DNA of 63,449 nt, filler included, from Reclinomonas americana ATCC 50394 (GCA_048213135.1; 5 parts of 3 records of this genome joined end to end with filler, not necessarily neighbours in it), one strand, 5' to 3'; positions 8,602-51,045 are shown, counted from the first letter of the whole stretch. Numbers and translations are program-made. Notes: generated by a model not told the origin, from the letters alone.

Positions 8602-11600
8602 ATTTACCGCTCGTGAAATCGAGGAGCAGAGGATGCAAGTGTGCCAGATGGCAAAAGATGGCGACTTGAAGGCATTGCGTCAAAGAGTGGCACGCAACGG
8701 AGGAACGAGCTTTCTGCTGAGGAGGGCGAATGTCGAAGCCGCTGATACATATGGCTCGGTCTTTCACTGCGCTGCTGTCGAAGGCCATGTCTACGTGTTG
8801 GAGTATTTATGGGAACTTGACGTCGGCGCCCAGCTGGTGCATATGGTTGCAGGCGGTGGCTTGACGCCTTTAATGGGAGCTGCCGCGCGCGGGCAACTGC
8901 GAGTGGTGAAATGGTTGCTTGAGGATGAGGGACGATGCCCGCCAGCGATGGCGCGGATGGTCTCCACAGACCGCGACGTGATTCCGCAGTCTACCGCGCT
9001 GCATCACGGTGCCGTGCATGGTCATGTTGCAGTTGTCAACATCCTCGGGACCCGCTTTCCCGATCTCATTCCCATGGTCAACAAACAGGGCAAGACAGCG
9101 GCTCAGTTGGCTGCCGACAACAAGCAGTGGCGGGTGGTTGAGCTACTCGATCGTCTTGCTGCACAGCCTCAGCAACAATTGCAGAACCAACAATCTTTTT
9201 CTCCTCCCTCACCGCGACCGCAGCCAGGTGAAGTCTCAGGCTCCTGCTTCGTTCACTTCGCCGCTTATTCGACTCACATTTTTAACCTTTTGTATAATTC
9301 GTGACGTGCAACAGAAAGCTTTCGCGACCGTGTTTCGTGAGTACCTACGGTTTCCCATGCGTTTGTACAATTTCCCACTCTCATACACGTGTGTTGTTTG
9401 TCTATTGTTGTTGTCAGCACTCCTCATCTACGATTGAGAAGGGCAGCGTGGAATATGGGGACACTTGGCGCCACGGATGCACTGCGCCAGTTGGTGGCGC
9501 ACGAGGGAGCGTGCACTCTGCTGAAGCGAGAGGAGTTGACAGAGCTTGGCGGCTCGGCTTTTCATTGTGCCTCTTGGAAAGGCCATCTCTCTGTGTTGGA
9601 ATACTTGTGGGAAGAGAGTGGCGTTGGGCCGCAGCTCGCGCTGATGGTGGACAACTGTGGCCAGACGTCGCTAATGTTGGCTGCGGAGAAGCACCTGCAC
9701 GTAGTGGAATGGTTGCTTGTCGATGAGCGACGATGTCCGCTGGAGATGGTGTCAGCGGTTACAAGTGACGTTTCCTCCAGTCCGCAGTCCACTGCACTTC
9801 ATTATGCTGCCGCCGCTGGTCACGAAGACGTCGTGCAACTCCTCGCTACTCGCTTTCCCTATCTTGTTCCCATGATCAACAAGAAGGGCAAGACGGCAGC
9901 CGATCTGGCACATGACAAGGGCAGGCGACAAGTAGCCGAGTTCTTTGAACGCCTCGCTGTGGTGCAATCCCAAGCAGAACAAGAGCAACAAAAACAACAG
10001 CACCAACAACAGCAGCTGCAGCAACACCAGCAACTACAAGAACAACAGCAACGGCAATTGGAATGCCCGCAAGTCAACTCATCGTTAACGCAGCCTCATT
10101 GCCCGCCACCAGGTGTGTTTTGTTCGCGTTTATTTCTAGCTCTGATTATCCTGTCTTTTCTCACATCTCTCCTCGCTTTCGTGAAAGTCTCAGCGCAAGT
10201 ACTGCCGGTAAGAATGACATTTAATAGTGGTGACTATGAATCGACATTATTTGTTTCACTGCTTACACCACTAGGTTCTTTCCCGACGCTGCAGGTGGTT
10301 GACGATATCACGTGCACTCCAGAACGCCAACTCTCTCTCATGAACGCGCTCAATTTTCAGCTGCAGCATGAACTTGCTGTCGCGCAGCAGGAGCGACAGC
10401 AGCAACAGCTGGAGTGGGATCGACAACGGCGGGAGCAAGAAACCACGGTTACTCTGCTTCAGCGATTCAATGCTGATCTCCAACAACGCACGGCCGATGA
10501 GGAGCAGCGCAATGCCGAGCTGCGCCGAGCTGATGCTGAGCGACAGGAGCAGGTTGCGCGATTGCAGCAAATTGTGACTGAGTTGCAACAAGACAACGCT
10601 GTGTTGCATCGCTCGATAGTGGAGTGGCAGCGAGAACATGATGCGAGCCAGCAGCAGGTCTCCCAACTGCAGGCTGAGCGAGGTTTTATTGCTTTGCAGC
10701 TGGCCGAATCCGTGCACGACAAGCGTGAACTCTCTGCGCTTCTTCAGGAGAGCAACCGACTTGTCTCCCAGTTGCGACAGGAACTCCTCCTCGCGCAAGG
10801 TTTGGTATTTCTCGTCGTCGTCCTGTAGCTTTTTTCGTCCGGTTCTCTCTCCCGTTCTCTCTTGCTCTCTCTCTCTCTCTCGTACACGCACACGCACACA
10901 CGCGTGCGTACAGGCACGCATACACCATCACATGCTGACACATTCCACAGTTGGCACTTCGGTGCAGCGGTTCGAATGGTCCGAGATTGTGCAAGCCACT
11001 GACTCATTCTCGCCACGCCTGAAGATAGGTGGTGGCGGTCAGGGTGCCGTCTTTATCTGTTACCTCCGCGAGGTTTACGTGGCTATCAAGGTGCTCGATC
11101 CCGCTGCTCCATGGACGAAAGAGTCCTTTGAGACCGAGGTCTGTGTTTCTCCCTCTCTTGCTTATTTTTCCCTCTCTCTCCCTTCTCCCCTCTATTTCGT
11201 CTCATTATTCTTTCAATGGTCGCAGGTGGCGACTCTCGGCCGCCTGCACGACCGTCGCGTCGTCCCTCTCGTAGGCTATTCTGTGGGCGACGATCAAGAA
11301 CGCTGTATCGTTTACAAAGCACTGCAGTGCGTATCCATGTCATTCATTTTTGCACACGCATTCTCTGCAACATAATCACTCTGCAAGCATAGAGTTCTCA
11401 ACCTTGAAGATATGCTGCTACTGCCGTGCGCTGGTCGTGCGCCACTTTCTGTCGTGCAGCGCGTGCAGATTGGACTCGGACTGGCCGAGGCCCTCGTGTT
11501 CTTGCATAAGGTTTGTTCGATGCATAGCAAATCATCTCTAGCTACATATGCTCGGTTTGTGTGCCCTCCTTTTTTTGTGCTCTCGATCCTTTGTTGCTGC

Positions 11601-12267
11601 TCTTTGTCTCTCCGTGTCTCACGTGTTTTCAACTTCCCACTTCACTCTCTCCCTATGTCCTCAAACTCTCATTGAGTTTTCATGATCAAGAGTTCTGCCA
11701 CCCCTTCACTCACCGCCTCTTGCAGAACAATGTTGTGCACCGCGACATCAAGCCATCCAACGTTCTTCTCGATCACAGATTGGAACCTTGTGTCGGTGAC
11801 TTTGGTGTTGCGCGGTCAATTGCTTGTGGCAGGGTTCGTCTGGCCGAGTCATTGGGCTCGTTTCCCTCTTTCTCTCGTTTCCCACTGTCTCACTTTCTCT
11901 CGCCACGCAGACGACGACCGCTGCCGGCACGCTGGACTACATGGACCCACTGGCGATGCGTGCGAGGGTTCCGCATCCGGAGCACGACGTGTACAGCATG
12001 GGTGTTGTGCTGGTGCAGCTGGTCACCGGCAAACCAGTGGGGGCGGTGGTGGATTTGTCAGTGGCATGGGATCGCTCTGCGGCTGCACTGGTTCCCATGG
12101 AGTTGGTGGACGGTGGAGCAGAATGGACGGCGCGCGTCGCCGAGCCAATGTTTGAAATCGGCATGCGGAGCATGAGCATGAGACGCGATCGGCCGACGGC
12201 GCAGGAGGTGCTCGACAGGATGCGGGCCATTCGCGACGCTTGTGGGCAGTTTACGCTGGAGCTTTAA
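8602..12267 (+). CDS. Paralogous protein with two ankyrin modules, a coiled coil and an IRAK-Pelle-like kinase (no RING); start uncertain
   Basis: Two ANK modules (approx. 8630-9170 and 9430-9960) clearly homologous to that of the upstream gene (LEYLWEESGVGPQ, DERRCP, PQSTALHYAA, TRFP). Coiled coil 10300-10800. Kinase FEWSEIVQATDSF..IGGGGQGAVF, VAIK, HRDIKPSNVLLD, DFG, GTLDYMDP, DVYSMG, RPTAQEV. Stop TAA at 12267. Confidence 0.85.
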
Positions 12268-12689
12268 TGAATGGGAGGAAGGCCTCGGTCCATTGCAATT
12301 GCTCCTCTCAGTTTTGCAATATGAACCTCTTTGGATCGTGAGGTGAAGATTGCAGTTCGGAGGAAAGCTGCCGCTGCGCTCAAGACTGCATTATGTTGGT
12401 CATTTGCCCGAGTGTTGGTGAATGCGCAAGTGTCGAGGGAATGCCGATCCGCCAAACCTGTCGCAGGTTGTCAGAAACAGAAATAGTTCTTGATTCTCAT
12501 CCTTCGTTGCAGCCTGCATTGCTTCCGCGGCTCAGTGGGCACTCTCCTCACAGTGATAGGCTTGCGACGAGGGTCACCTCCGCTTGAAGACAACACTTGC
12601 CGGATTCCTTTCATGAGACAGGACTGGCTCTGCCGTATTCACTCATTTTTCTGCCAAGTCGGAGAGGAGAGCGGAACACCGTGTCGCCC

Positions 12690-23531: not shown

Positions 23532-23631
23532 NNNNNNNNNNNNNNNNNNNNNNNNNNNNNNNNNNNNNNNNNNNNTTAATTAATTAANNNNNNNNNNNNN
23601 NNNNNNNNNNNNNNNNNNNNNNNNNNNNNNN
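23532..23631. other. Artificial contig linker (N-TTAATTAATTAA-N); also at approx. 51243, 59221 and 60899
   Basis: Identical six-frame-stop 12-mer embedded in runs of N at four places. Confidence 0.95.
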
Positions 23632-23751
23632 TGCAGCATCGACATGAACCAAGGATGGTCGAGGGTAAAAGACACGACACAGTCAGACGATGAACGGACC
23701 GGACAGCAAACCACGCTGCAGGTACCAGAACAGCAGAAAGGTCATCGCAAC

Positions 23752-26700
23752 TTGTAGCACACGCCATAGGTCGCACCCGGGGTGACACCCGTGACATTGA
23801 TTACATACTCAGTGTCCGTGTTCGACACAAATGCACCAATAGTGACACCGGCTGCTTGTGCACCTGTCGCGCACGTCGTGCCGCCAGTGGTGTCAATGAT
23901 GACAATTGAGTCCATGTTGGAAAGGCTGTGAGAAAGAGATGTCAGTTGAAAGCGGAAGCAGCAAGCCAGGGGAAAAGCAACTGACCCAAATCCGGTAATA
24001 GTCAGAGGAGTGACGAGTGTCTTCACAACCGAGGCCGGCGCGAAGGACGTCGTGCCTTGAATGTACAGCAGTCCTGGAGCCGTGGCAATGGGAAGTGCAC
24101 CAATCCTGCAAGAAACCAGTCAGACGTCACAATCAGACTTGCAGACCTAGCAAGCAGAAAAGGATTCCACTCACTTGACGCAGACTTTGAAGGATCCTGC
24201 AGTGGTACCGCGCACCGGCACGTTCAGTGTTTGAGTGTTGGGCGAGGTCACCGTTCCTGTTGACAAGAGGGATCAGCTTCTCAATAAAGATGAGCAAGCA
24301 TGTCATACGACGCACCGACAGTGATGCTGGCATCCGACGTGGGGCCGCAAGCCGCCGCAGACGCCACGATGGTCACCGTGTCGGTGACGGCCAGGCCGTC
24401 ACCAGCAATCGTCAGCGTTGTGTCGGTGGTGGTGCTGGGGGCGATGGACTGGTAGTAGGGAAGGGGGTGAGGAGGACGGGAATGGGGGAGAGAAGGAAAA
24501 GGGGGAAGAGGAAGGAGGAAGAAAAAGGGGGAGTGCAAGGGAGTTAAAGGGGAGTGGAAGGGGGAGTGGAAGAGGGAGTGGAAGGGGTGAGTGGAAGGGG
24601 GAGAGAAAGGGGGAGTGAAAAGGGGGAGGGAAAGGGGGACGGGAAAGGGGGACGGGAAAGGGGGAAGGGAAAGGGGGAGCGAAGGGGGTGAAAGGGGGAG
24701 TGAAAGAGGGAGGAGATGAGGGAAGGAGAAGGGGAAGTGGAATGGGGAGAATGAAAGAGAAGGGGGAAGAAGCGAAGGGGAAGCAACGGGAAGCGTAAAC
24801 TGGAGAGTTGGGAGGAGTGCGCATTCGAGAAACAGGTAAGACGAAGAGACAAGACCTTTGGTGTAAACGAGCCCGGACCCGCTGCCGTGACGAGTCCACC
24901 GGTAACAGCGACAGGTGTACCAGTGGCCGAGAAGCTGACGCACACATTCGAGTCAGAATACAATCGGTCTCTGCGTTTCATCACCCGTTTGTCACCCCCT
25001 ACGCAACGCAATGCACAGCGAGAAATTCTGCGCCGTGTTCGACGTAATGGACACAGTGATTTGCTGGCTAGTACCGCCCGCCGGTGGAGTCACAGTCACT
25101 CCGGCAGCGGCCATTGGGGTGGGAGAGCAGGCCGTGTTGGCCACGACCGCGGTCACCACATCACTGTCGTGTGTGAGCAGTGGTACCAGATGACGGAGAA
25201 GAGGCGCATTAAACGAAACTTCGTGCCCAGACCCGATCCATTGATGGAGACCACCGTGGCAGTGCCGACCGGGATGGTGGACGGAGAGATACTCGTGGTG
25301 CCTGTGCACAACGCTGTCAGGAACTAAATGCGGACAACTGTGCATTGGCACACGCACCCTGCACGTCGAGAGAGCCACCGATGGCCGCCAGCGAGCCCAC
25401 CGTCTTGAAGCACAGGAAGTAGCTGCCAGTGGCGGCGTTGGTGGTGGTAAGCGAAAAGACGTAGGTGGTCGCCGACGGGGCGGTTGGTGTGGCTGTTGGA
25501 AGGGAAGAGACAGGATGGTGAGTAAGCTGTGTTGAAAAGCATTCAATTGAAGGCAAACGAACCAGTCGCAAAACCAGTGGCTGCAGTGGCGCAGGCATTC
25601 GTCGTTGACACTTGCACGGTGGTGGTGGCCACGGTCAAACCGTAGCCGGTGAGGGTGATTGACGTGGTGCCGCTGGCCGGGACGCTCTGTGGCGGGGGAA
25701 GGAGGAAATGAGACGAAGGAAAAGAGAGACAAAGGGAGAGGGAGAGGGGGAGAGGGAGAGGGGGAGAGGGAGAGGGAGACGGAGAGGGGAGAGGGAGACG
25801 GAGAGGGAGACGGAGAGGGGAGAGGGAGACGGAGAGGGAGGAGAGGAGAGGAGAGGAGAGGAGAGGAGAGGAGAGGAGAGGAGAGGGAGACGGACAGAGA
25901 CAGAGAGGTAAGGCAAGAGAGAAAGAGATACAGAGAGGTAAGGAAAGTGCAAGATAATTAAGGTGAATTGAGATGGAAAGCAGAAAAAGAGAAACGACAG
26001 GCAAAGATGCAACGAATGGTATTCGTGGAGGGCGAAGGTGGGTGCAGGATTGAGAAAAGCGACATCAAGGGCGCGCTCTCTTTGTCGCTCACACTCGCTT
26101 TCTCTCTTTATCTGTCTATCTGTCCCTCTCTCTCTCTCTCACTCTCTTTCTCTTCGTCTCTCTCACTCTCTGGGTGCAGCACGTACCAGAGGAGAGAACG
26201 ACGTGGCGCCCGAGATGGTGAGCTGACCACCATTCACAGGAATCGGAGATGCCGCACCCGGAAGCCTGTGCCATTTCAAGTAAGCCACCCATCTGAAAGC
26301 AATGCTGCTCAAATCAACGCAACGTGATGCACAGCGTGACCAGTGCGCCAGCAGCAGAGACAGCCGTCGATGTGACCGACAGCGTCGCCTCCGTGCTTCC
26401 GGTAAACGTGGGCATCGCACCGATGGTGATGCTGGCCGGCTGGGCGTCACCGCAATTGCCACTGGTGACGGCCTTGAAGGCGTCGCCCATGGCCAGACCG
26501 AAGCCAGTGACAATCACATTGGTGGCGGCGTTCACTTGGATTTCGGTGGGCGAGAAGGTGGTAGTGCCTGCCAGCGGAGAATAATCAGTAACCACAAAAA
26601 TGGAAGAGGGGGGTGAGCAATCCATACCAGCAACAGTGAGGACGCTGCCTGCGGCCGTGTATGTGGCTCCACCACCAAAGCTGCAATGCACAAAGCACGT

Positions 26701-29700
26701 AAGCTGCAGCGAATCCCATTGTTGCTCTTTCCTCTTCATCTCACACTCACCTGATGCAAATGGTGAAAGTGCCAGCGACGGTCGACTGCGCCTGAATGTT
26801 CACCGGCAGCAGAATGGCCGTCGGCGCGGGATTGGTACTCAGCGTGGCGGTCACATTGGCGGCCGGCGTGGGATTGCCGTTGCAGGCCGTGGCTGCGGTG
26901 CCGCTGACAATCTTCACCACGTCGTTGGCAGAGAAACCGGTGCCGGTGATGGACACGAGGGTGGTCTGGCCGGCGTTGATGGTGGCGGGGGTGAATGCTC
27001 CGGCGCCTGAAGAGGAAAAGGGGGTGGTAAGGGAAAGGGTGGTAAAGGAAAGGGTGGTAAGGGAAAGGGGTGGTGAGGGAAAGGCGGTGGTATGGGAAAG
27101 GGTGGCAAGGGAAAGGTGGTAAGGGAGGTGGTGGAAAGGGAAAGGGTGGAGAAGGTGGTAAGGGAAAGGAGAGGAAGCAAGAGGAGAAGGAGAGGAGAGG
27201 AGTGGAGTAGAGAGGGGAGGGAAGGAAAGGAGAGGAGAGGCAAGGTGAGGGGGAAAGGAGAAGAGGGAAGAGGAGTGAAGAGGAGAGATGAGAGGAGGGG
27301 AGAGGAGAAGAGAGAAGTAGAGAGGAAAGTGGAGAGATGTGCAATAAGAGAAGGGATGCAAAGAGAAGGGAAACGAGAGGAGAGGAGTGAAGAGAAGAGA
27401 GTGGGAATAAGAGAGTGGTGAAAAGATATGAAAAAAGTTCGGATAAACCGAAGGATTGGAAAGGAAAATGATGAAATGAAAGAGGGAAGGAGAGGAATGC
27501 AGAAGAGTGCATGCTCAGTGTTCTCGTGCAGAACCTGCACGCGTGCTGCACATCGTCAACGAACAATAGAGAGGAAACACGAAAAAGGAGACAAGATTGC
27601 GGGATGAGAAGCCCGATGCAATTGCTACTGGAGAGCAGCGAGAAAGAAAGGAATATTTAGGAGTGAGACGAGTCGAAACAAGAGCAACTCACCTTGGATG
27701 TAAAGGAAGTTCGGCGAGGGCAGCTGCGTGTAGGCACCGCCGGTAGTCCTGCAAATCAATTCGTGTGAGTTCAAGTGGGGGATTACGCGCCGTTTCTCCT
27801 TTCCGCCTCATCTTTTCACTCCTCGCTCACCTCTCTCTGCATTAGCTATTCATCTCTCTCCCATCTCCCGCCATCTCCCGATCATTTCGCTTCTGTTATC
27901 TCCTCCCCCTGTCCTCTCATCTCCACCTCAGTTCTCTCCTCCCCCTGTCCTCTCTTCCGCTCCCCTTCTCCCTCGATCCCCTTCTGCTCTCCTATCCTCT
28001 TCTCTCCTCTCCTTTCCTTTCCTTTCCTCTCCTCTCCTCCCCTTTCCTCTCCTCTTCTCTGCTCTTCTGTCGCCCGTCGCAACTGGTAGCACACAGCAAA
28101 CGTTCCGGCGGCGGTACCAGTAGCGCTGAACGACAGAGTAGTTCCGTCGCCACTCGGCGTGATGGCGGCTACGAATGAATGTGTAAGCAGGAGTACACGA
28201 CAATCCAAGTGAACAAGAAAAACGCAACAGACGGTGACCGTGGTCGCGTCGTTGGCGCAATTCACATTGGCGGAGTTGGGCACAACGCGCACCAAGTTAC
28301 CAGCAGCAAAGCCGACGCCAGTCAACGTCACTGTGGTGGCCGCGGCGGGGATGGAGACCGGGGAGAGCGAGCTGGCGCCCGACAGGACGAGGGTGCCCGT
28401 GATGGCCACGCTGGCGGCGGCGCCCGTGTACCTGCGGATCGATAGTCACACACCAAAGACAAGAAAAAGCACAAATTGAGAGCCGCGAGTCGCAACTTGA
28501 TGCACACGGAGAGATTCTGCGGCGTCGTGCTGGCGGTGATGGGCACGGTGAGACCGGAGGCCGAGGTGGCTACATTGCCGAGAGTGATGCCACCGGGGGC
28601 GGCCGCAGTGCATGCCGAGCCCGAGGGCACGACCGTCACCACGTCACTGCGCCACAAAGTAAGACACTGACATCACCCCCACTGTGTCCCTTACAATGAC
28701 AACGCAACGTGGCCTGCAGTCCAGTGCCGGTAATGGTAACCTGCGTCGCAATGCCCACTTGCACATTCAGCGGGGAGAAAGTGGAGGCGCCGGTGACGGC
28801 CAGCGAGAGGCCCGAGACGGCAACCGAACTCGACGTGCCAATCTTGTAGCACACCGTGTAGAGTCCAGCGGGGGCGGTGGTCGAGTTCACCGTCGCCGTC
28901 AACACTGTGTCGCCCATGGTCGAGGTCGGCGCCGTGGCCGTTATGGCCGGCACAGCGGTACCCGTGCATGCTGCATTGGCGCCGCTGATAAACGTGAATT
29001 GCACGTTGGCGGCTACGAGGCCGACGCCGGTGAAGGACAGAGTGGTTCCGGTGTTCGGCAGCACCGAGGTGGGCGAGAAGGTGTTGATGCCGTCGACGGC
29101 AAAGGAGCCGCCCAGCCAGAGAGAGTACGCCTCGCCGGTGGCCAGTCTTGGAATAGGGGAAGGGGGAAAAGGGGAAAGGGGAAAGGGGAAAGGGAAGGGT
29201 GAGGGGAGGGTGAGAGAAATGAATGATAAATTATGTTGAGTGGGAACGGGGAAAGGTGAAATGAGACCGGGTGAGGAAGAAGAGCGAACGGCGGTATACG
29301 GTGAACAGGTGAAGAGGCGAAAGAGGGAAGGGGCGACAAGATGAGAGAGGAAGGAAAGGGAAAGGTGCGAACAGAGGAAAAACAAGAGAATAGAGTAACA
29401 GAAGCAGAGTGCAAAAGAGAGGAAGTCAGAAAAGCATGCAGTCGACAACTCACCGAATGCACAGATTGAGCGACTGCGCCTTGGTTGACGTCATGTTGGC
29501 GGTGAGATTGGTGGCGCCAGTCGAGGCGATGCCGGCAAATGACGTGTTCCCGTCCGCAGCGCCACTGCAGTCGCCTGGGGCGACCACCGCCATGAGCGCG
29601 TCCGATGCCGCCAGACCGGTACCCGTGGCCTTTTCGTAACAAAGAGGAATGTAAGCAGTCTGCGTGATGCTCACTTTGTGAAAATCCACTCACCGTCAGT

Positions 29701-32505
29701 GGCACCGCCGTGCCAATGAAACCGCTGTTCGGCGTGTACGACGTGACACCTGCGCGAGAAGACAAGAAAATGAGCACGACCGCTGCCACCAGTTCCCTTC
29801 TCAGTCTCCATGCTTTCCGCACCATTCACAGTGATGCCCGTCGAGGCAGCCGTCGAAGCGTAACCCGTGATCACGTAGCACAGCGTGTAGGCACCGGGCT
29901 TGGTGGCGGTGGTGGCAAACGACAGCGTGGTGGCCGTGGCCGTCACGGCGCCGACTGTGACCGAGGTGTCGGCGGTGCCGGGGCAAGTGGCATTGGCGCC
30001 GGCCACGTACGCCACGGTGGGAGTGCCGGTGTAGACGCCAGTGGCAGTCACAGTGGTCTGCACATTGGCACTAAAGGTGGCGGGAGCCACCGACGTGGTT
30101 CCGTAGACGGTCAAGAGCAGGTTCGGGACGGCGCTAAAGGTGTTGCCGCCGTTGGGGGCGTAGCACATTTTGAGGATTTGGGCGGTGGGTGATGTCACGG
30201 TGAAGGAGAGGTTGGTGGCGCCGGTGGAGGCGAAGGTGGTGACCGTCACGCCGTTGGCCATGGCTTGCGTGCAGTCGCTGAGAGGGGGGGAGAGGACAAG
30301 GGGTATGAGGGGAAGGGGGTATGAGGGAGAGGGGGGTATGAGGGGGAGAAGGGGGAGAGGGAAAGTGGGTATGAGGGAGAAGGGGGAGAGAAGGAGGAGG
30401 GGGTATGAGGGAGAAGGGGGAGAGGTAAGAGGAGAGGAAAGGGGGAAAGAACAGGGGGAAGGAACAGGGGGAAGGAATGGGAAGAAATTGGGGAAGGAAA
30501 AGGGGGAAGGAAAAGGGGAAAGGAACAGGGGGGAAGGAAANNNNNNNNNNNNNNNNNNNNAGGAACAGGGGGAAGGAACAGGGGGAAGGAACAGGGGGAA
30601 GGAATAGGGGGAAGGAATAGGGGAAGGGGAAGGGGAAGGAAAAGGGGGAAGGAAGAAGGGAACAGGGGGGAAGGAAAGGGGACGAGGAAAGGGGGAAAGG
30701 GAGATGAAAGCAGGGGATAAGGAAGGACTAAACAGAGAACTGGGATGGGAGACAGAACGGCGACAGGCGGACAGAGGGGACAGTATGAAGTGTATAGAGA
30801 GAGTTCAGCAAAGGGAAGAGAGAAGGAAGAACAGTGGAGAGCGGAAGCACACTATGAAGAGCAATATGGGGAGCAGGAAAGGAACTCAAAAAAGGAAGAG
30901 CGGGGAAGAGAACAGTGTGCAAACACTTAGAAGGCCCAGAAGCATGCATGAAACAGAGAGACGGGTTGTTCCAGAAGCACAGGATATGAGGAACAAGCGC
31001 ACAGCGAAACGAAAAGATTGCAGATACTGAGCGAAGAGGATCAGAGCAAAACACGGTAAGAAAGATGAGATATCAACGCAACCTGGCCTGCGGGACCATC
31101 TTGATCTGCTCATTCGCCGCGAGATTGGTGCCGGCGCATACAATGTTGACTGCCGCGCCCATGAAGCCGACGACAGGTGCAAAGCTGGCAATGCCGTCCA
31201 CGGTGAAGGTGGAGGAGGCGAGGGTGGCCGGCAGCGTGCCGACCGTGTAGCACACTGCGATGCGGGAAAAGAGTGAGTTGATACAAAAAAAGCAAAGCAC
31301 GCTGACTCTTCCTGTTCTGCTCTCTCTCTCTCTCTCATCCCCCGCTGAGCACCTGAATAGACACCCGCATTGGTGCCGGTGGTGATGGTCACGGTGGCGG
31401 TCGTGCCGTTCAACGTCACTGCGCCGACCGTGAAGGAGTTGTCGCCCGTGGCGGTGGCGCAGTTGGCGTTGGCGCCCGCCACAAAGGAGATGGTCATGGA
31501 GCCGGTCAGGCCAATGCCGTTGAAGGTGAAGTTGGTGGCGGTGGCCGGGGCGGCGGAGGCGGGGGTGTAGGAGGAGACGCCGGTGACCTGGGAAATGGGG
31601 GAAGGGTGGGAAGGGGAAGGGCGGGAAAGGGGAGGAAAGGAGAAGAGCAGGAAAAGAAGAAGAGGAAGAAGGAGGAGGATGGGGGACAAGTGGACCTAAA
31701 CAAGGAAGCACAGCGCGATTCACGAGAAAGTATAGCAAGGGATTAGAGATCGTAATCATATGCTTGCAGGGAGAAAAGAACTAAGAGAGTGGAGAGAGAG
31801 GAGAGAGAGAGGAGATAGAGAGAGAGAGGAGAGAGAGAGCGCGCGCGCTGAACACGCAGAGCAGGCCACATTAGAGGGCGCAGAGAATATGACGATAAAA
31901 AATTCAGCAGGAATCAGAGACCGCAGTCAGTGTGTTGCGCGGAGACAGAGATGAAGGGAGAAAACAAGTAAAAAGAGAGAGGGGAGACCCGCAGAGTGGT
32001 CACACTAAGGGCACAGAGAATACGACAACTCAACACGAAAAAGAGAGATGTCATGTGAGCAATAGTCAGACAGACAGTGCAAGGCAAAAAGGAGAGCGAG
32101 GGAGTAGAGCTGCAGAGAGACGCGGAGAAGAGAGAGATAGCACTGTAGATGCACACACCGTCAGCGTCTGCGTGCCGAGCTGGACAAACGAGGCGGCGCC
32201 AGCAGGTCTGCAAGAACGAGTCAGCGCGTTGTAAATCGCAAGAAATTGCATAACTCACGCAACTGAATGCACAGCATGACCGTCTGCGGAGTCGTCGTGG
32301 CGAAGGTGACGCTCACTTGCGTGGCCTGCGTGACATTGGCCGCCGTCACCGTGACGTTTCCGACAGCAGCGTCCGTGCAGGCACCAGTACTGGCGACGGC
32401 CTTGATGCCGGTGACCGCGCCGAGCGGGATGTTCGAGCCTGGGCAAGAGGGGGAAGGGGAGTGAGACGGAGGGGAAGAAAAAGGAGAAGAAGGAGAAGAA
32501 GAAGA

Positions 32506-32578
<73 letters not shown>

Positions 32579-33320
32579 NNNNNNNNNNNNNNNNNNNNNN
32601 NNNNNNNNNNNNNNNNNNNNNNNNNNNNNNNNNNNNNNNNNNNNNNNNNNNNNNNNNNNNNNNNNNNNNNNNNNNNNNNNNNNNNNNNNNNNNNNNNNNN
32701 NNNNNNNNNNNNNNNNNNNNNNNNNNNNNNNNNNNNNNNNNNNNNNNNNNNNNNNNNNNNNNNNNNNNNNNNNNNNNNNNNNNNNNNNNNNNNNNNNNNN
32801 NNNNNNNNNNNNNNNNNNNNNNNNNNNNNNNNNNNNNNNNNNNNNNNNNNNNNNNNNNNNNNNNNNNNNNNNNNNNNNNNNNNNNNNNNNNNNNNNNNNN
32901 NNNNNNNNNNNNNNNNNNNNNNNNNNNNNNNNNNNNNNNNNNNNNNNNNNNNNNNNNNNNNNNNNNNNNNNNNNNNNNNNNNNNNNNNNNNNNNNNNNNN
33001 NNNNNNNNNNNNNNNNNNNNNNNNNNNNNNNNNNNNNNNNNNNNNNNNNNNNNNNNNNNNNNNNNNNNNNNNNNNNNNNNNNNNNNNNNNNNNNNNNNNN
33101 NNNNNNNNNNNNNNNNNNNNNNNNNNNNNNNNNNNNNNNNNNNNNNNNNNNNNNNNNNNNNNNNNNNNNNNNNNNNNNNNNNNNNNNNNNNNNNNNNNNN
33201 NNNNNNNNNNNNNNNNNNNNNNNNNNNNNNNNNNNNNNNNNNNNNNNNNNNNNNNNNNNNNNNNNNNNNNNNNNNNNNNNNNNNNNNNNNNNNNNNNNNN
33301 NNNNNNNNNNNNNNNNNNNN

Positions 33321-33395
<75 letters not shown>

Positions 33396-36300
33396 CAGGG
33401 AGACAGAGAGACAAAGAGACAGAGGGAGGGAGAGAGAGAGAGGAGAGAGAAGAAAAGAAAGAAAGAAAGAAAGAAAGGAAGCAAGAAATGAAGAGAGAGA
33501 GAGAGAGAGAGAGAGTAACTGCGAGTAGCCTCCTCATTCTTTGTTCATGCTCGAAAGAGAGGCGGTTGAGAAAGGTAGAAACATAGCAGCGGTACGACTT
33601 TCCACGCCCAGGGGAGCAGGGACAGAACAGCACCTATCTGCGTGCGAGAGAAGAACGCCAGACTCACTGATAGATGTCCCCGCTTCCTACAAAAACAGCA
33701 TACCTGTGCCCGTGATCGCCGTGGTGGTACGATTGGCATCATTCACCGCCACCGTGGTTGGTGAAATAGAGGTGAAGCCTGCACAGAATAAAGTGAGCGC
33801 TCACCCAACCTCTACGTTATTGAACAAGCGAAACGCACCGCCCACAGTCAGCTGCGACAGCGAGGCCCAGTTCAGGCCGGGGATTCTGCGACAAGTTCGC
33901 GTGAGCAAACCAAGCACACAAGGACGAATTTCACATTGCCGCGCAACTGGTAGCAAATGTAGTACGAATTGCCAATGGCCGCCGCGGACGGAGTCAGCGC
34001 CGCCAGCAGTGTCGTCGTCTGCGGGGTAATAGTGCCAATGGTAATGTCGGTGGTGGTGGTCAACGTGCTGCAGTCGGCCACTGGCATTTTGCCGATCTTG
34101 ATGAGCGTGTTGGTCACCAGACCCTGGCCGGTCAGCGTCACTGTGGTGGCAATGGTGGCGAGAATGCCCTGCGGGCTGAACGACGATGCGCCGTTCACCG
34201 GAAAGCCGCCGCTTGGGACGGCCACAAATGCCGCCGAGCCGGAGAATCTGTGCCATCAGCAGTGAGCAGAAGAGTGTGTGTGTGTGTGTGCGTGACGTGG
34301 CATCCCTCCAAGTCGCAACTGGAAGCACAGCGCGAGGGTGGCGATGGGAGTTGTGCCTGTTATAGTGGCTGTGTAGGTGACGTTGGCGGTAGTGGGATTG
34401 GTGATGGTGATGGAGGCGGCGGCGGCGCTGGCGCATGTGCCGTTGCCGCTGGTGTCGACGACTTTGAGGGTGTCGTTGGCGGTGAAGCTGCAGAGAGGGA
34501 AAGGAGAAGGAGGAAGGGGTGAGGGGGAAGCAAAGGGGGAAGGGGAAGAGAGTGAAAAGGAGAAGGCGGAAGAATAGGGGAAGGGGGTGAAAAGGGGAAA
34601 ACAGAAGAATAGGGAAGAAGATGGTGGGGGGATGGTGATGTGCAGGGAACGGGGAGGACGAGGGAAGTGGAAACAAAAACGAAACGCATAAAAAACTATC
34701 AAGGATTGAAGAAGAAGGGAGACACATGAAGGTACAATACTCGAAAATACGAAGGGCTGACGAGAAAGAGCGAAGGGTTGCGACAGGGCTGGAGTGCGAG
34801 AGTGGGGACGACAACGAATTGACATACAAAACGTAGACACGTGTAAGAGAGAAGTGAGACACAGAGTAAAGTGAAAGGAATAACTGGGGAAGGGGGGCGG
34901 CAGAGAGAGAAAGAGAAAAGAAGAAGAAGAAAGGAGATAATGAAGGCGCAAAGTCGAAAAAACGAAGGGCTGGCGTGAAAGATCGAGTTGCGACCAGGCT
35001 GGAGTGCGAGAGTGGGGACGACAACGAATTGACACACAAAGCGTAGAACACGTAAGGGAGAAGTGAGTCGCAGAGTAAAGTGAAAGGAGCAACTGGAGAA
35101 GGGGGGCGGCAGAGAAAGAGAGAAGAAGAAGGGAGGAAATAAATGAAGACAAAATACTCGAAGAAACGAAGGGCTGACGAGAAAGAGCGAGGGGTTGCGA
35201 CAGGGCTGGAGTGCGAGAGTGGGCACGACAACGAATGTTGAAGGAAAGAAACTGGATTTGACACACAAACGTAGCAGACGCAAGACAATAGTGAGTCGCA
35301 GAGCAACGTGAAAGGAATAACTGGAAGGAGGGCGGCAGAGAGAGAAGACTTCGGAGATTGGACAGGATTACACGAGACAGAGCAGGTTGATGAAGCTGAG
35401 ACAAATAACTCACCCGAAACCATTGATCTGCGCAAAATAGAGAAATGGAAGGTGAGCATGTTGCCGCAACGAGTTGTGGGACAGTGGCTCACTCACCGTC
35501 AGCGTCGTCGCGGTATTCACCAGCAGTTGTGGGTTGTTGGGAGTGACGCTAGTGGTGCCTGCACCACATGGTGTGTGAAATAATGGGACAAACAGAGACA
35601 TCTCAGGAATATAAACGCACCTTGCACGTACAGGGTCCCGGGCACGCTGTAAAACTGGGAGCCAGTGGTCCTGATGGTTTGCGAGTTAGAGCGCGTCTAG
35701 CGACACGAGATTAATTGGAGGACACTCAACTGTATGCAGATGGTGTAGGCGCCAGCAGTTGTTCCAGTCACAGGCGCAGTGGCATTGGTGTCTGTGGGGG
35801 TGACGGTGCCTGGAGGAATAGGGGGAAATGGGTGAGTCACGAGAAAGATGGCAGAGAGAGAGAGAGAGAGAGAAAGAAAGAANNNNNNNNNNNNNNNNNN
35901 NNNNNNNNNNNNNNNNNNNNNNNNNNNNNNNNNNNNNNNNNNNNNNNNNNNNNNNNNNNNNNNNNNNNNNNNNNNNNNNNNNNNNNNNNNNNNNNNNNNN
36001 NNNNNNNNNNNNNNNNNNNNNNNNNNNNNNNNNNNNNNNNNNNNNNNNNNNNNNNNNNNNNNNNNNNNNNNNNNNNNNNNNNNNNNNNNNNNNNNNNNNN
36101 NNNNNNNNNNNNNNNNNNNNNNNNNNNNNNNNNNNNNNNNNNNNNNNNNNNNNNNNNNNNNNNNNNNNNNNNNNNNNNNNNNNNNNNNNNNNNNNNNNNN
36201 NNNNNNNNNNNNNNNNNNNNNNNNNNNNNNNNNNNNNNNNNNNNNNNNNNNNNNNNNNNNNNNNNNNNNNNNNNNNNNNNNNNNNNNNNNNNNNNNNNNN

Positions 36301-37829
36301 NNNNNNNNNNNNNNNNNNNNNNNNNNNNNNNNNNNNNNNNNNNNNNNNNNNNNNNNNNNNNNNNNNNNNNNNNNNNNNNNNNNNNNNNNNNNNNNNNNNN
36401 NNNNNNNNNNNNNNNNNNNNNNNNNNNNNNNNNNNNNNNNNNNNNNNNNNNNNNNNNNNNNNNNNNNNNNNNNNNNNNNNNNNNNNNNNNNNNNNNNNNN
36501 NNNNNNNNNNNNNNNNNNNNNNNNNNNNNNNNNNNNNNNNNNNNNNNNNNNNNNNNNNNNNNNNNNNNNNNNNNNNNNNNNNNNNNNNNNNNNNNNNNNN
36601 NNNNNNNNNNNNNNNNNNNNNNNNNNNNNNNNNNNNNNNNNNNNNNAAGGAGTGGGGAGAGAAGGAGTGGGGAGAGAAGGAGTGGGAGAGAGGGAGTGGG
36701 GAAAGAGAAGGAGTGGGGGGAGAAGGAGTGGGGGAGAAGGAGTGGGGGGAAGGAGTGGGAAGAGACAAAGTGAGGAAATAGTCGGAGTGGGGGGAAGGAG
36801 TGGGAAGAGACGGAGTAGGGGGACACAGAGTGAGGAAAGAGTCGGAATGACGGAAGAGACGGAGTGAGAGAAACTGAGAGAGGGAGGATAGCGATTCGGG
36901 AAAGTTGTGAGCAGGATGACGGGACGCAGCGGGTTGCAGGCGAGGGAAATTCAACAGGGAAAAGGAAAATGCAGAAGAAAGAACGAACAGAATCACTGTG
37001 CGCTTCTGTTTCTCTGCATGACAGAGAGAGAATGAAATGAATCTTTGACTCAAGCAACATGCGTGCAAATGCGAGGGGACTCGTCTTCCTATTCTGACGT
37101 TACCCCACTATTGCGTCTCCATAACGTAGACTTCCCACTCTCACTTTCCCTTGCCTCATGCGAACTCACCAAATGAGGCGCCAGTGGCTGCCGCCGCAGT
37201 GCTGCACTGGCCACTCGCGTCAATAACTTTGAAGGTCGCGAAGGCAAGGCCAGTGCCGGTGACGGTGACGGTGGTGGTGGCCACGGCGATCGACTGCGAC
37301 ACGTGTGAGAATTGGAGAAAGCGAGTGCTTGAGTTGGTGCGACTCACCGCCGGCGAAAACTGCGAGGCCACCACGACGGCCAATGCACCGACATTTGTGT
37401 ATGTGCCCGTGCCGGCCTCGTCAAAGCAGAGAACGCCGGAGAAGGACGTGTTAGGCACGGTGATGGAGAAGGTGAGCACGGTGCCGCCGTTGGACAGTGC
37501 GTTGTTGGCAAAGGTGAAGCCGGCGGCATCGTTTCCGGAGCAGTCGGTGGCTGTGCGGGCGGCCACCTGCGACGGGCAAAGGGAAAGTGAGCGAAAGGGA
37601 TAGGGGGCAGCGAGGAGAAGGAGGGAAGAATTCAAGCTCTTGCGGAATAAGCTGAGAGTCACAGCAGGTGTTCAAATGACTGACTGAACGGGAGAGAGAG
37701 AAAAAGAGAGGAAGAGAGAAAAGAGAGAGGGGCGAGGAGAGAGTAAGCTATTCTCTCTCTGCGATTTCGTTAACCGTTCGNNNNNNNNNNNNNNNNNNNN
37801 CTACTCTACTTACTTACTTCCTACTCGTC

Positions 37830-37874
<45 letters not shown>

Positions 37875-38533
37875 GGACAAGTCTGCCTCGATAACTTTCT
37901 CTCATCCTCCCTCTGCTCGCCCCGAAGCAGCTTGTCCCTCATCCCCCTCCCTCTCTCTCTCACTCTCTTTCTCTTTCTCTCTCGCTCTTGTCCCACGAAT
38001 GCATTTTTCCGACGTCGACTGGACACGCAACAGTCGTTCCCGTAAACGTCGTGCCTCCCGCTCCCGTAACCGTCACCCCCGCAGTGGTCGATCCCGGAGC
38101 AAACCCACTCTGCGAGAGGGTTACCGTGGCGCTCGCACCTACGCGGAAAGGAAGAAGAAAGAAAGAAAATTCAGTTTCGTGAGTGATGTGCCGCACGACA
38201 TGTCGCACACGCACAAGGGGAGAGGGAAGGGAGAGAGTGTGTGAGAGTGAGAGAGACAGGGAGAGGAGGGAGAGAAGGAGAGAGAGGGAGAGAAGAGGGA
38301 GAGGAGGAGGGAGGCAGACACTCTCTCTCTCTCACACACACACAAACTCACAACTCACTGCGCACACTGCACACGCACTGCACACACTGCTCACCCTATC
38401 ACTCACACACTCACACACACACACTCTCTCTCTCTCTCACACACACACACACTCCTCTTCTCGTTACGCAACCAATGATCAAGTGGAGCAGAAGCACCAC
38501 AAGGAGCACCAGCGAGGTCGATGTCGACTTCAT
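23752..38533 (-). CDS. Giant secreted/cell-surface protein with at least 18 tandem ~95-aa Thr-rich IPT/TIG-like (Ig-fold) repeats, 3'-partial
   Basis: Signal peptide MKSTSTSLVLLVVLLLHLIIGASA (exon 38533-38473 joined to the exon starting at 38138). Repeat consensus S(F/I)SP-x6-9-T(V/L)TxTGxG..VV..C..T..(Y/F/L)xxC(Y/I/F). More than 35 frame-consistent exons. Truncated by the contig linker near 23580. Confidence 0.82.
34740..35340. repeat. Approx. 200-220 bp unit, three copies, inside an intron of the IPT-repeat gene
   Basis: CGAAGGGCTG..GTTGCGAC..GGCTGGAGTGCGAGAGTGGG..ACGACAACGAAT recurs at approx. 34750, 34963 and 35167. Confidence 0.8.
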
Positions 38534-46373: not shown

Positions 46374-49300
46374 AAGTGATGTTTCCACTGTTCTTGAGAA
46401 TTCACTTTTGTCCTTGTTGTTGTTGCAAGTGAGCTGTGTGCCAGTGTGAGTGCCATTTGGCCTCCTCCTTCTCTCTCTCTCTCTCCCTCTGTTTCTCCTT
46501 CTCATCGCCTTCCTTCCCCCTTGCCCCCCTTTTGCTCACGCTCCTTCCCCCTGTCCGCAGAGCCCGCGAGGAAGCCGAGGCCGCCGCCGCCGCCGCCGCT
46601 GCTGCCGTGCCTACCGACGCCGACGCCACCGCCACCGCCGCCGATGGCGAGGAAGGCACCGCCACCGCCGGCGATCCCACCAGCCCCGCCTCAGTGACCA
46701 GTCCGAGTGGCAACGGTGCGGCGTTTGTCGCCCCCGCCGCGGCGATGCCCAAGTACCGCGTCATTGACGAGGATTCCGACGAGGACGAGGACGAGGATGA
46801 GGATTTCAAGGAGCGCGACGAGCAGACGGCGCTCATTCAAAAGCACGACGCCAACACACGCACGACGGTGCGCAATCTGCGTCTGCGCGAGGACACGGCC
46901 AAGTACCTGTACAATCTCGACGTCAACTCGGCCTACTACGACCCGAAGACGCGCTCCATGCGTGCCAATCCGCGCCCCGACAAGGAGATGACCGACACGT
47001 CGTTTGCCGGCGACAATATTGTGCGCTTTTCGGGTGACGCACCAAAAGTGCTGGAGGCGCAGGTGTTTGCGTGGGAGACGGCGGAGAAGGGTGCCGATGT
47101 GCACATGCAGGCGCAGCCGACGCAGTTGGCGGTGATGGAGAAGGTGGTGGCGCAGCGCAAGGCCGAGCTGAGGGAGAAGCAGAATAAGAGTTGCGCCGGG
47201 AGGGGAGAAGGAGGGGGAAGGGGGGAGGGAAGGGAGAGAGGAGAGGAGAGGGTAGAAGAGAGAGGAGTGCCTGTTGGTGTGAGAGCGAGAGCGAGAGAGA
47301 GAGAGGGACAAAGAATGCAGGGGCAGCAGTGAGAGGGGAAGATATAGAGGGATGGCGAAGAGAGAGAAGTGAGAAGGGAGAGTGAGTGGTAGTGAGAGAG
47401 ANNNNNNNNNNNNNNNNNNNNNNNNNNNNNNNNNNNNNNNNNNNNNNNNNNNNNNNNNNNNNNNNNNNNNNNNNNNNNNNNNNNNNNNNNNNNNNNNNNN
47501 NNNNNNNNNNNNNNNNNNNNNNNNNNNNNNNNNNNNNNNNNNNNNNNNNNNNNNNNNNNNNNNNNNNNNNNNNNNNNNNNNNNNNNNNNNNNNNNNNNNN
47601 NNNNNNNNNNNNNNNNNNNNNNNNNNNNNNNNNNNNNNNNNNNNNNNNNNNNNNNNNNNNNNNNNNNNNNNNNNNNNNNNNNNNNNNNNNNNNNNNNNNN
47701 NNNNNNNNNNNNNNNNNNNNNNNNNNNNNNNNNNNNNNNNNNNNNNNNNNNNNNNNNNNNNNNNNNNNNNNNNNNNNNNNNNNNNNNNNNNNNNNNNNNN
47801 NNNNNNNNNNNNNNNNNNNNNNNNNNNNNNNNNNNNNNNNNNNNNNNNNNNNNNNNNNNNNNNNNNNNNNNNNNNNNNNNNNNNNNNNNNNNNNNNNNNN
47901 NNNNNNNNNNNNNNNNNNNNNNNNNNNNNNNNNNNNNNNNNNNNNNNNNNNNNNNNNNNNNNNNNNNNNNNNNNNNNNNNNNNNNNNNNNNNNNNNNNNN
48001 NNNNNNNNNNNNNNNNNNNNNNNNNNNNNNNNNNNNNNNNNNNNNNNNNNNNNNNNNNNNNNNNNNNNNNNNNNNNNNNNNNNNNNNNNNNNNNNNNNNN
48101 NNNNNNNNNNNNNNNNNNNNNNNNNNNNNNNNNNNNNNNNNNNNNNNNNNNNNNNNNNNNNNNNNNNNNNNNNNNNNNNNNNNNNNNNNNNNNNNNNNNN
48201 NNNNNNNNNNNNNNNNNNNNNNNNNNNNNNNNNNNNNNNNNNNNNNNNNNNNNNNNNNNNNNNNNNNNNNNNNNNNNNNNNNNNNNNNNNNNNNNNNNNN
48301 NNNNNNNNNNNNNNNNNNNNNNNNNTCGTGAGGTGTCACGGAACCGAAGGGGGACATGGGAGGAATAAGAGAGAAGGGAAGTTGTGAGTTGTGGTAGCCG
48401 GTTTGAAGTTTGGCGAGAGAGAAGAGGCGAGAAAGAAAGAGAGAAACCAGGAAGAGCGCGATACAGAAAAAACGGGGGCGAGAGAGAAGTCATTTTCTCC
48501 AAGTGTTGTTACTCACTCACGTGAGAATGCAGTGAGAAGATGGAGGTGATTAATGTTTCAAGAGAATACAGACCGACAGGCACACACAGAAAGAGAGAGA
48601 GAAAAAAACCAGGAAGAGCAATACTTTGTCCGAGAGAAATTTCACTCCCCTTTAAAGGTTACTCACTCCCTTCCCCCCTCCACCCACCCCCGCAGTGCTC
48701 CTGGAGAGGTACGGCGGCTCGGAGCACATGACCAAGGTGCCGGAGGAGTTGGTGCTGGCGGCGTCGGAGCGCTACGTGGAGTACGGTGCCGACGGCAAGC
48801 CGCTGATCAAGGCCAAGGGGCCGGTGATTGCGCGCAGCAAGTACGAGGAGGACGTGTACGTGAACAATCATTCGTCGGTGTGGGGCTCGTACTGGAAGGA
48901 TGGCCAGTGGGGCTATTCGTGTTGCAAGTCGCTGTCGAAGGACTCGTATTGCCGCGGACCCAAGTAAGTTTTGAAGAGGGAAAAGGAACTGGGTGTCGTG
49001 CTCGCTCACTTTTTCCCCTTTCGCAGTGCGCGCGACTCGGAGGACGACCTCATCGCGGAGATGATTCGGCGCAAGGAGATGGAGCTGGAGCAGAAGCGGT
49101 TGGCGGACGAGGCGGCGGCGGCGTCGGGGAGCAAGAGTGGGCGGAGAAAACGCGGGCGTAGTGAGGAGAGTGGCAGCGGGAGTGGCAACAGCGACGACGA
49201 TGACGAGGAGTTGGAGCGGAAGCGCAAGGTCAAGGAGGCGATGCGGCGGGAGCAGGAGCGCATTCGGCGGCTGCGGGAGGAGGGGTTGGCGGATGATCGG

Positions 49301-49417
49301 AAGCGCGGGTACAATTCGTTGGCGGGCGACTCGGAGCATCATGTGCGGGAGGAGGATTTGGAGGCGTTTATGTTGACGAGGGAGCATTATGATGATCCGA
49401 TGAGGAAGGGGAAGTGA
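45035..49417 (+). CDS. SLU7: Pre-mRNA splicing factor SLU7
   Basis: TVRNLRLREDTAKYLYNLDVNSAYYDPKTRSMR, QVFAWE, QAQPTQ, LERYGG, SKYEEDVYVNNHSSVWGSYWKDGQWGYSCC, DDPM. Exons 46561-47189, 48696-48963, 49027-49417. Putative first exon 45035-45050 (MASST|); the remaining N-terminus is probably in the gap. Confidence 0.93.
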
Positions 49418-49708: not shown

Positions 49709-51045
49709 TTACGCCGACTCGGGCTTGCGCAAAAAGTAAATGTGATACTGCGAACCAAATCATGAGCTCCCAAACACACTCGCACAACACACAAAGCAAC
49801 TCAACGTGGAACATCTCCCCGATGCGCTTCACCGTCATCTCGAACGGGTGCTCGCTGAGCCATGGTCGCAGGTGCGGGAAGGCAAAGGAGATCTGCGTGG
49901 GGAGTGAGTCGGCGCGGGTGGGGCTCGCATGGAAAGCACAACCACGCACCTGAATGTACGTGCCGCCAGGGCGGAGCACGCGGTACACCTCGCGTAGCGT
50001 CCTCGCAATGTCGGCCATGCACTCCTCGCTCTTGTCGACCTGGTGGAGAGGGGAAAGAGCGAGAGGGGAAGGAGAAGGAACGGATGAGGACAAAGAGCAC
50101 ACAAAGTGAAGTGCGATAAATCCAGGGCATCGCTAATCAGAGAATGATACACCAAGTGATGAGACAAAACTTCCAGCGCATCCAGCGTGCCCTTGTCAAG
50201 CACCACGTCGTATGAGCCATCGGCATCGTCGCGCAGGTCGCGAATGTCGGCCACACGCCCTGCAAGAAGGGAGTGAGCAGAGAGCAATCAAGGCGCGTAG
50301 TGGTGACGGACAGCCCGATGAAAGAGAGAGAGAGAGAGACAAAAGCGTGACTATTCCACGAAACGGGGCAGAAAGCAATCATGAAGCAGAATCAGGAAGC
50401 GTCGACAACTGCAATGCTCTCCAGAAATGCGATTGAGGCAACGATTGCTAAACAGATGGCCATGCGCAGAAAGATCGTGCTCAGATGCGACGAGAACGAA
50501 GAACCAAAGAGAGAAGTGAGAGATGAGAAACAACAGGCGCAGCACAGGTCACATGAGACGAAGAATAGAAAAGCCCTCGCTGAACTCTGTGCTGCCCACG
50601 AAACATGTCATCTCCGGTCGCTTCTCCTGCATATTGCGGATGACCACGTCGCTGAAATCGACATTGACGAGGTTGGTGTAGCCTGCACCGCACATGAGTC
50701 TGCACGTAAAGGCTGATTCAACAGGAGCACACCGCACCAGCATCGTACAAGTCGGCCGACAATGCTATCACACAAGGTGAGCGCGACGTCGCAACACTCT
50801 CTCAAAGACAGAACACACGCAACTGCTGTTCCCACAGCCCAGATGCAGAATGCGGTCCTCGGGCTTCATCGCCGGCCTTCGAAGAAGAGACTCAGAACAA
50901 CGTACAATGAGTGACTTAGCTGAAAGTACGACGCACCGCAGGTGCTCTTCCAGATCAGACCATCGCTTGAACCACTGCTATGGAGTGAGATGACGGTGTG
51001 GACAACAGGCGTAGTACATCACACGCAACATCGTACGACTCCTCC
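49709..51045 (-). CDS. Class I SAM-dependent methyltransferase, EEF1AKMT4/METTL13-N family, 5'-partial
   Basis: Spliced EESYDWFKRW..ILHLGCGNSTLSADLYDAGYTNLVNVDFSDVVI..WRVADIRDL..YDVVLDKGTLDAL..EVYRVLRPGGTYIQISFAFPH..FHYHIYFLRK. Confidence 0.88.

Follow-up and report, generated by a model that had tools for sequence, protein, structure and literature searches.

The window analysed here is the whole 63,449-nucleotide (nt) stretch of Reclinomonas americana ATCC 50394 DNA (GCA_048213135.1), a draft eukaryotic scaffold with numerous N gaps. It contains, on the minus strand, a gene for a protein of tandem IPT/TIG-like repeats, the introns of which begin either with a canonical donor (5' splice site) such as GTGAGT or with a GTT-type donor, mostly GTTGCG. 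The donor register is tightly coupled to the last base of the exon. The repeat gene, the linker that truncates it, and the donors of the intron found at the ends of its repeats are listed below, a slash marking the exon-intron border.

38138..23752, minus strand: modelled part of the IPT/TIG-like repeat gene, 36 exons, 1736 amino acids (aa), stop-free
35725..35730, minus strand: repeat-end intron, phase 2, CA/GTTGAG (GTT class), 60 nt
34314..34319, minus strand: repeat-end intron, phase 2, CA/GTTGCG, 72 nt
33942..33947, minus strand: repeat-end intron, phase 2, CA/GTTGCG, 62 nt
32258..32263, minus strand: repeat-end intron, phase 2, CA/GTTGCG followed by TGAGT, 56 nt
29448..29453, minus strand: repeat-end intron, phase 2, canonical CG/GTGAGT, 307 nt
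28491..28496, minus strand: repeat-end intron, phase 2, AA/GTTGCG, 65 nt
28078..28083, minus strand: repeat-end intron, phase 2, CA/GTTGCG, 335 nt
26745..26750, minus strand: repeat-end intron, phase 2, canonical AG/GTGAGT, 70 nt
26318..26323, minus strand: repeat-end intron, phase 2, AC/GTTGCG, 58 nt, followed by the hand-added exon 26265-26187
25002..25007, minus strand: repeat-end intron, phase 2, GC/GTTGCG, 73 nt
24169..24174, minus strand: repeat-end intron, phase 2, canonical AA/GTGAGT (the exception), 69 nt
23746..23751, minus strand: last repeat-end donor, AA/GTTGCG, its acceptor lost in the linker
23532-23631, no strand: contig-join linker, 44 N + TTAATTAATTAA + 44 N (100 bases), cutting off the 3' end of the repeat gene

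The spliced model resolves into 18 repeats of 84-104 aa each. The 5' end of the gene was not found in modelling and the 3' end is lost at the linker; additional repeats were searched for past the linker and upstream of 38138, and none was found. Identical 100-base linkers occur four times in the window (23532-23631, 51199-51298, 59177-59276, and 60855-60954). They are six-frame stop spacers of the type used for stringing contigs together, and the order of the adjoining pieces may therefore be arbitrary. The protein weakly resembles IPT domains, hence the label: three of five single-exon pieces matched Pfam TIG (PF01833) at 16.7-18.9 bits (E values of 0.0015-0.0076), below the gathering cut-off of 20.9, and the other two gave no match to it. 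A single-sequence fold prediction for one and a half repeats was all-beta with a predicted local distance difference test (pLDDT) score of 49, too low in confidence for a fold search. A search among longer proteins with one 145-aa exon of the repeat protein returned no homologues at E ≤ 0.001.

Exons were located by dynamic programming with a donor-blind finder, which gave every GT an equal score and allowed GT-AG introns alone. It was adopted to guard against circularity, an earlier version having rewarded GTTGCG. The finder retrieved 11 of the 12 repeat-end sites, and the twelfth (26323) was retrieved once a skipped 79-nt exon (26265-26187), which encodes the expected repeat segment, had been inserted by hand. 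Two acceptors (25686 and 25301) and one donor (31352) were fixed by eye against the repeat consensus.

The first-pass annotation had described a phase-2 intron at the same position in 12 of the 18 repeats, in the second codon after the last Cys, together with the donor of each copy. All twelve strings read exactly as they had been written, on the minus strand, and the junctions fall into a single alignment column (column 0) with nine GTT-type and three canonical donors. GTTGCG (eight copies) and GTTGAG (one copy) follow A or C, and GTGAGT follows G twice and A once; the last of these, AA/GTGAGT near 24174, had been singled out as the one exception and indeed stands there. The six intron-less repeat ends read straight through, and the spliced ends share their columns, with short gaps at most. 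In-frame GT-AG alternatives within 45 nt were enumerated for 13 GTT-class donors of the gene (23751, having no acceptor, was left out). Eight of these are repeat-end donors. At seven of them, a single alternative retains the acceptor without adding residues from the intron, namely a GT 9 nt upstream, inside the Cys codon, the use of which would remove the conserved Cys; donor 35730 has no such alternative at all. Reading GTTGCG as coding sequence (Leu-Arg), with the donor further downstream, was rejected, as the in-frame options add intron-derived residues and mostly delete conserved residues of the next repeat.

One repeat that lacks the repeat-end intron (31254-31587, minus strand) carries a phase-1 intron 10 nt upstream of its place, one codon before the Cys. 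This intron of 101 nt has an unusual donor, CAG/GTGCTC, and may be a different or a moved intron.

In the 18-repeat alignment, five further intron columns are common to two to six repeats each. Away from the repeat end, four of the intron positions include GTT-type donors:

38026..38031, minus strand: GTT-class donor ACT/GTTGCG, phase 0, 465 nt
37164..37169, minus strand: canonical donor TTG/GTGAGT, phase 1, column 82
31077..31082, minus strand: sole GTT-class donor after G, CAG/GTTGCG, phase 2, 805-nt intron including a 20-N gap
28703..28708, minus strand: GTT-class donor CAC/GTTGCG, phase 2, column 55, 62 nt
28223..28228, minus strand: GTT-class donor TCT/GTTGCG, phase 1, column 82, 60 nt, no in-frame GT-AG alternative
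25214..25219, minus strand: GTT-class donor GAA/GTTTCG, phase 2, column 55, 56 nt, no in-frame alternative
24310..24315, minus strand: canonical donor TCG/GTGCGT, phase 1, column 82

Column 82 repeats the built-in control of the repeat-end intron and gives the same result: at this homologous position, in phase 1, TCT/GTTGCG stands alongside TTG/GTGAGT and TCG/GTGCGT. The least certain donor is 38031, which lies in the most divergent repeat and has five other in-frame solutions. Altogether, 20 of the 36 donors of the repeat gene have G at +5 (GTGAGT, GTGCGT, and similar), 19 of them after an exon-final G; 14 are of the form GTT(G or T)NG with G at +6, 13 of them after A, C, or T; and two belong to neither class. 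Twelve of the 14 GTT-class donors are in phase 2, in which an exon-final G would limit the choice of amino acid. Silent exon-end sites show selection for the matching G: each of the six exons that end in phase 0 before a non-GTT donor has G at its final, silent position (P = 0.0027 from the gene's own codon usage), G-ending codons making up 22-57% of the four-codon families involved (Thr, Ala, and Leu).

The comparison was extended to 54 modelled donors in five genes, namely the repeat gene, a SLU7 gene, a methyltransferase gene, and two kinase genes. Canonical donors were defined by G at +5, and GTT donors by T at +3, no G at +5, and G at +6; the -1 base was used neither in the class definition nor in model building. 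The set contains 31 canonical donors (28 after G and three after A), 20 GTT-class donors (one after G), and three others. Donor class was associated with G at -1 in all five genes together (Fisher p = 5.8e-10), without the 12 repeat-end donors (p = 1.1e-6), among the other 24 donors of the repeat gene (p = 6.8e-4), and among the 18 donors of the four other genes (p = 0.0023). The 12 repeat-end sites, which are related by descent, gave p = 0.045 alone. The proposal that register tracks the -1 base in the repeat-end intron thus holds as far as the coupling goes, and falls short in that the coupling reaches beyond that intron. The rule extends to the modelled donors in general, and the repeats therefore display but do not establish it.

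The donors outside the repeat gene belong to the following features:

49709..51045, minus strand: methyltransferase gene modelled with 9 exons and 8 introns, a 172-aa frame closed by a stop
47190..47195, plus strand: SLU7 donor AAGA/GTTGCG, acceptor 48695/48696, spacing as in homologues
48964..48969, plus strand: SLU7 canonical donor after A, CCAA/GTAAGT

The SLU7 (splicing factor) gene (46561-49417, plus strand) and the methyltransferase gene (49709-51045, minus strand) lie tail to tail. The SLU7 junction at 47190 aligns without gaps with eight of eight homologues; the best identity of the SLU7 exon to any protein found was 63%, and no close relative of the source organism was among them. The methyltransferase gene has five GTT-class donors, T/GTTGCG (51029), A/GTTGCG (50823), T/GTTTCG (50604), A/GTTTTG (50170), and C/GTTGAG (49805), and three canonical ones (50936, 50737, and 49949), all after G (G/GTGCGT or G/GTGCGG). 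Two successive exons align with neighbouring positions of a single Pfam methyltransferase profile, and exon 6 matches a solved human chain (2pxx_A, E value of 0.04). Among solved structures, the remaining exons had either no match or irrelevant ones, and this single-exon comparison validated no junctions; a 49-aa query covering one exon found no homologues.

Two paralogous genes on the plus strand (4300-8000 and 8500-12270) code for proteins with ankyrin repeats, an extended coiled coil rich in glutamine, and a kinase domain, and the first of them ends in a RING-like Cys/His motif. Their models are rough, and the donors used were four per gene, read by hand in the kinase domain. In the first gene (6917-7210, plus strand), CAC AA/GTTGCGTGATT closes the exon that precedes the HRDLK motif, and only TTGC/GTGATT (6933) would serve as a donor in frame. 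The corresponding intron of the paralogue lies one codon position away and begins AAG/GTTTGT.

The GTT-class profile is the canonical profile displaced by one base, the exon side included. Position +4 of the GTT class is G in 17 of 20 donors (canonical +3, 22/31), +5 is C or A in 19/20 (canonical +4, 26/31), and +7 is T in 14/20 (canonical +6, 25/31). On the exon side, position -1 of the GTT class (A11 T4 C4 G1) is like canonical -2 (A11 C10 T6 G4) and unlike canonical -1 (G28 A3), and position -2 (A10 C8 G2) is like canonical -3. The exact hexamer GTTGCG opens 15 of the 20. In the window as a whole, GTTGCG occurs 63 times against about 32 expected, an excess comparable to that of GTGAGT and GTGCGT.

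Apart from the donor, introns of the two classes are alike. Short introns measure 52-73 nt in the GTT class and 54-73 nt in the canonical class, and a CTNAY branch-like motif near the 3' end was found in 16/18 and 20/23 introns, respectively, compared with 30/112 control windows. All acceptors are YAG or AAG in both classes, the GT and AG ends themselves being fixed by model construction, and the pyrimidine fraction upstream of the acceptor is 0.65 (GTT class) and 0.74 (canonical). Both classes thus have the features of U2-type GT-AG introns (ends, branch motif, and pyrimidine-rich tract). The interiors are unrelated, with mean similarities of -0.182 for GTT pairs, -0.178 for mixed pairs, and -0.170 for canonical pairs (shuffled, -0.235; best pair, 0.15). 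The same lengths, motif, and acceptors, and the unrelated interiors, therefore exclude readings based on two unrelated intron families, on introner-like elements, or on U12-type introns. The earlier suggestion that two ancient unrelated intron families are not involved is borne out to the extent that both types share one homologous position and phase in two columns, with the same lengths, motif, and acceptors.

U12-type introns have the 5' consensus RTATCCTT and a TCCTTAAC-like branch site. Introns of this type were considered and rejected: ATCC is absent from positions +3 to +6 of all 20 GTT-class donors, and their introns have the same CTNAY branch-like motif as the canonical class.

In the repeat gene, the long introns are filled with microsatellites that are rich in purines on the plus strand (GA runs and GGGGAA-like stretches at 24440-24800, 25700-25900, 27010-27400, 29150-29400, 30290-30700, and elsewhere), and several N gaps lie within such tracts; on the coding strand these introns are therefore strongly pyrimidine-rich. 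A 926-nt intron houses a tandem repeat of 210 nt (34708-35236 of the window, 2.5 copies, 83% matches), every copy of which carries GTTGCG on the opposite (plus) strand.

These profiles suggest how the two classes may be related. The canonical class, G/GT(G)(A or C)GT, and the second class, N/GTT(G)(C)G(T), could be forms of one seven-base signal, G-K-T-N-N-G-T, in which the second class has T in place of the second G. The GTT form would be cut one base further 5', ahead of the only GT left, and the first G of the intron would fill the role of the exon-final G, so that the exon-final base would be free. A junction codon that supplies G would then go with a canonical donor, and one that supplies A, C, or T with the GTT form. 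The repeat-end intron, probably copied along with the repeats, lies at the second base of a codon that varies (Gln, Lys, Thr, Ala, Arg, or Ser), and both states would be seen for that reason. We infer that the U1 small nuclear RNA (snRNA) reads the signal with its 5' end paired in a "+1 shifted" register, and likewise that the junctions are used in vivo. That two mainstream GT-AG donor classes exist here, the second being a shifted form of the first read by U1 in this register, is considered probable (roughly 0.6). A broader proposition is advanced more tentatively, at slightly below even odds: that the shifted donor is a standard second way of starting an intron, serving about one third of introns, with a fixed-register G-K-U-N-N-G-U cut before its first GU, any exon-final base, and the coding constraint on exon ends lifted. 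The sharp GCG core may reflect a lineage-specific change in U1, U6, or a protein binding the 5' splice site.

Pairing was computed with the standard U1 5' end (ACUUACCUG) as printed in the accessible part of PMC4856993, which may not be that of this organism. With it, the canonical register gives the better pairing for all 31 canonical sites, and the shifted one for 14 of the 20 GTT-class sites; of the rest, two pair equally in both and four better in the canonical one. These last four tell against the shifted reading, and other observations weigh with them. With the same U1, the mean RNAduplex energy is -1.85 kcal/mol for the GTT class against -7.2 kcal/mol for the canonical class. The strong C at GTT-class +5 (17/20, compared with 14/31 at canonical +4) is not what a pure shift would predict. 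The set draws 36 of its 54 donors from one repeat gene, many of them related by descent, and the coupling has exceptions, namely the GTT donor after G at 31082 and the canonical donors after A at 24174, 48964, and 11327. The eight kinase-gene donors include none of the GTT class, six of the eight following G. On the plus strand, GTTGCG stands at 4450, 5600, 7773, 10553, 10771, and 11807 inside the rough kinase-gene exons, and at 6928 AA/GTTGCGTGATT cannot join the next exon in frame, which needs a GT five bases on; the donor may have decayed or moved, the gene may be a pseudogene, or a micro-exon may have been missed there. The hexamer is thus insufficient by itself to mark a donor. Finally, all junctions in the window are predictions from the sequence.

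Two rivals of the shifted register keep the GTT class as genuine donors and read them otherwise. In a bulged register, U1 would pair with G+1 and U+2, the extra U at +3 would bulge, and pairing would resume at +4. Such registers are established in human cells, according to the available parts of PMC4856993 and PMC9311317, and pair counts do not separate them from the shifted register, which also counts against the shift (weighted 14.2 shifted and 14.7 bulged; nine sites better in each, two ties). A bulge would keep the exon-final base paired with C9 of U1, so that G would be expected as in the canonical class (28/31), whereas it is seen in 1/20, and the exon-side profile is itself displaced by one base. 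The near absence of exon-final G argues for the shift, because the bulged register retains that contact, and a bulge is judged unlikely. Scarcely less unlikely is that a different RNA, either a variant U1 or some other snRNA with a 5' end complementary to GUUGCG, reads these sites in an ordinary register of its own. The class does have its own sharp consensus (GTTGCG in 15/20; C at +5 in 17/20 compared with 14/31) and pairs weakly with standard U1, but the exon-side offset and the matching of +4, +6, and +7 to canonical +3, +5, and +6 are simpler under one reader. A scan of the window against Rfam gave no match, 63 kb being far too little to judge the presence of an snRNA.

That the GTT-class sites are artefacts of the gene models, the true junctions lying elsewhere or having other end dinucleotides, seems improbable. 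The junctions are predicted, the exon finder admits GT-AG alone, and GTTGCG occurs inside rough kinase exons, once where it is unusable in frame; nevertheless, the spacing at the SLU7 junction agrees with eight of eight homologues, the methyltransferase frame stays open over eight introns, alternatives in the repeat gene are nonexistent or remove the conserved Cys, and spliced and intron-less repeat ends share their columns. Inheritance alone, with the nine repeat-end GTT donors copying one ancestral donor and the coupling among the 12 due to chance and descent, is very improbable. It can draw on the p value of 0.045 for the 12 sites alone and on the repeat protein tree, which is star-like. 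In that tree the two copies with a canonical donor after G never form a clade, as the repeat upstream of 29453 groups with an intron-less repeat (97/93) and those upstream of 26750 and 24174 group together (80/84), and the minimum number of donor-class changes is two. However, forcing the two G-type copies into one clade was not rejected by the approximately unbiased (AU) test (p = 0.0585 for protein, 0.24 for DNA), nor was forcing all three canonical copies (p = 0.0565 and 0.10), so that on this point the earlier expectation of independent switches stands unproven. Against descent as the whole explanation are the coupling without the 12 sites (p = 1.1e-6) and in other genes (p = 0.0023), column 82, and the silent sites (P = 0.0027). 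The AA/GTGAGT at 24174 and the CAG/GTTGCG at 31082 could be intermediates of a switch. A mobile or recently spread "introner"-like family carrying GTTGCG at its end would account for the same hexamer opening introns in unrelated genes, and is hardly credible: once the first 7-8 bases are passed, pairs of GTT-class introns show no greater similarity than mixed or canonical pairs do, and no terminal repeats were seen in these introns.

How the cleavage site is set exactly relative to U1 binding is an old question, and human shifted sites are few. If the shifted reading is true, an organism with a third of its introns in that register would be a natural large-scale test system, in which one gene holds the same intron in both states and the donor class is predictable from the junction codon. 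Gene finders trained on G/GTRAGT would mis-model such genomes. A search of full-text literature found no description of a GTTGCG-type donor class, which is weak evidence, and the organism's own literature may cover it.

The "+1 shifted" U1 register was described for atypical human 5' splice sites (Roca & Krainer 2009, as cited in the available text of Tan et al. 2016, PMC4856993). There, the human test oligonucleotide for this register is ACA/GUCAAGUAUA, and all validated noncanonical registers together account for about 1.5% of 201,541 human sites. The sites of the present window resemble the human ones, as far as the accessible account describes them, in that the G of the cleaved GU would pair in place of the exon-final G, the downstream contacts would lie one base over, and T/U follows the GU. 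They differ in abundance (20 of 54 modelled donors) and in consensus, GTTGCG(T) with a strong C at +5 compared with a GUNAAGU-like human form. The human register is experimentally validated, whereas the class reported here is predicted from sequence. The register itself is thus already known, and what is new is its apparent scale (20/54 compared with about 1.5% in human); the GTTGCG consensus also appears to be new. Registers with bulged nucleotides or asymmetric loops (Roca et al. 2012, likewise through the available text of Tan et al. 2016, PMC4856993) offer another parallel. In them, as in these donors, the distance from the GU to the conserved downstream G is longer by one intron base, but they keep the contact to the exon-final G, which is present here in 1/20.

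In the classical pattern, compensation takes place within one register, and a missing -1G goes with stronger +3 to +6 positions. The exon-final G and the +5G of 5' splice sites are known to be dependent, according to the accessible part of PMC8283771. The coupling in this window is similar in that the exon end and the intron positions past +2 are linked, one side compensating the other, and three of its sites (AA/GTGAGT, AA/GTAAGT, and CA/GTGCGT) fit classical compensation within a register. It is unlike that pattern in that -1G and +5G occur together, and a -1 base other than G goes with a conserved G at +6. Intron positions can also be inherited through tandem domain duplication. The repeat-end intron, which occupies the same column and phase in 12 of the 18 repeats, resembles introns of duplicated domains in this respect, and differs from them in that its copies, like those of column 82, vary in donor class.

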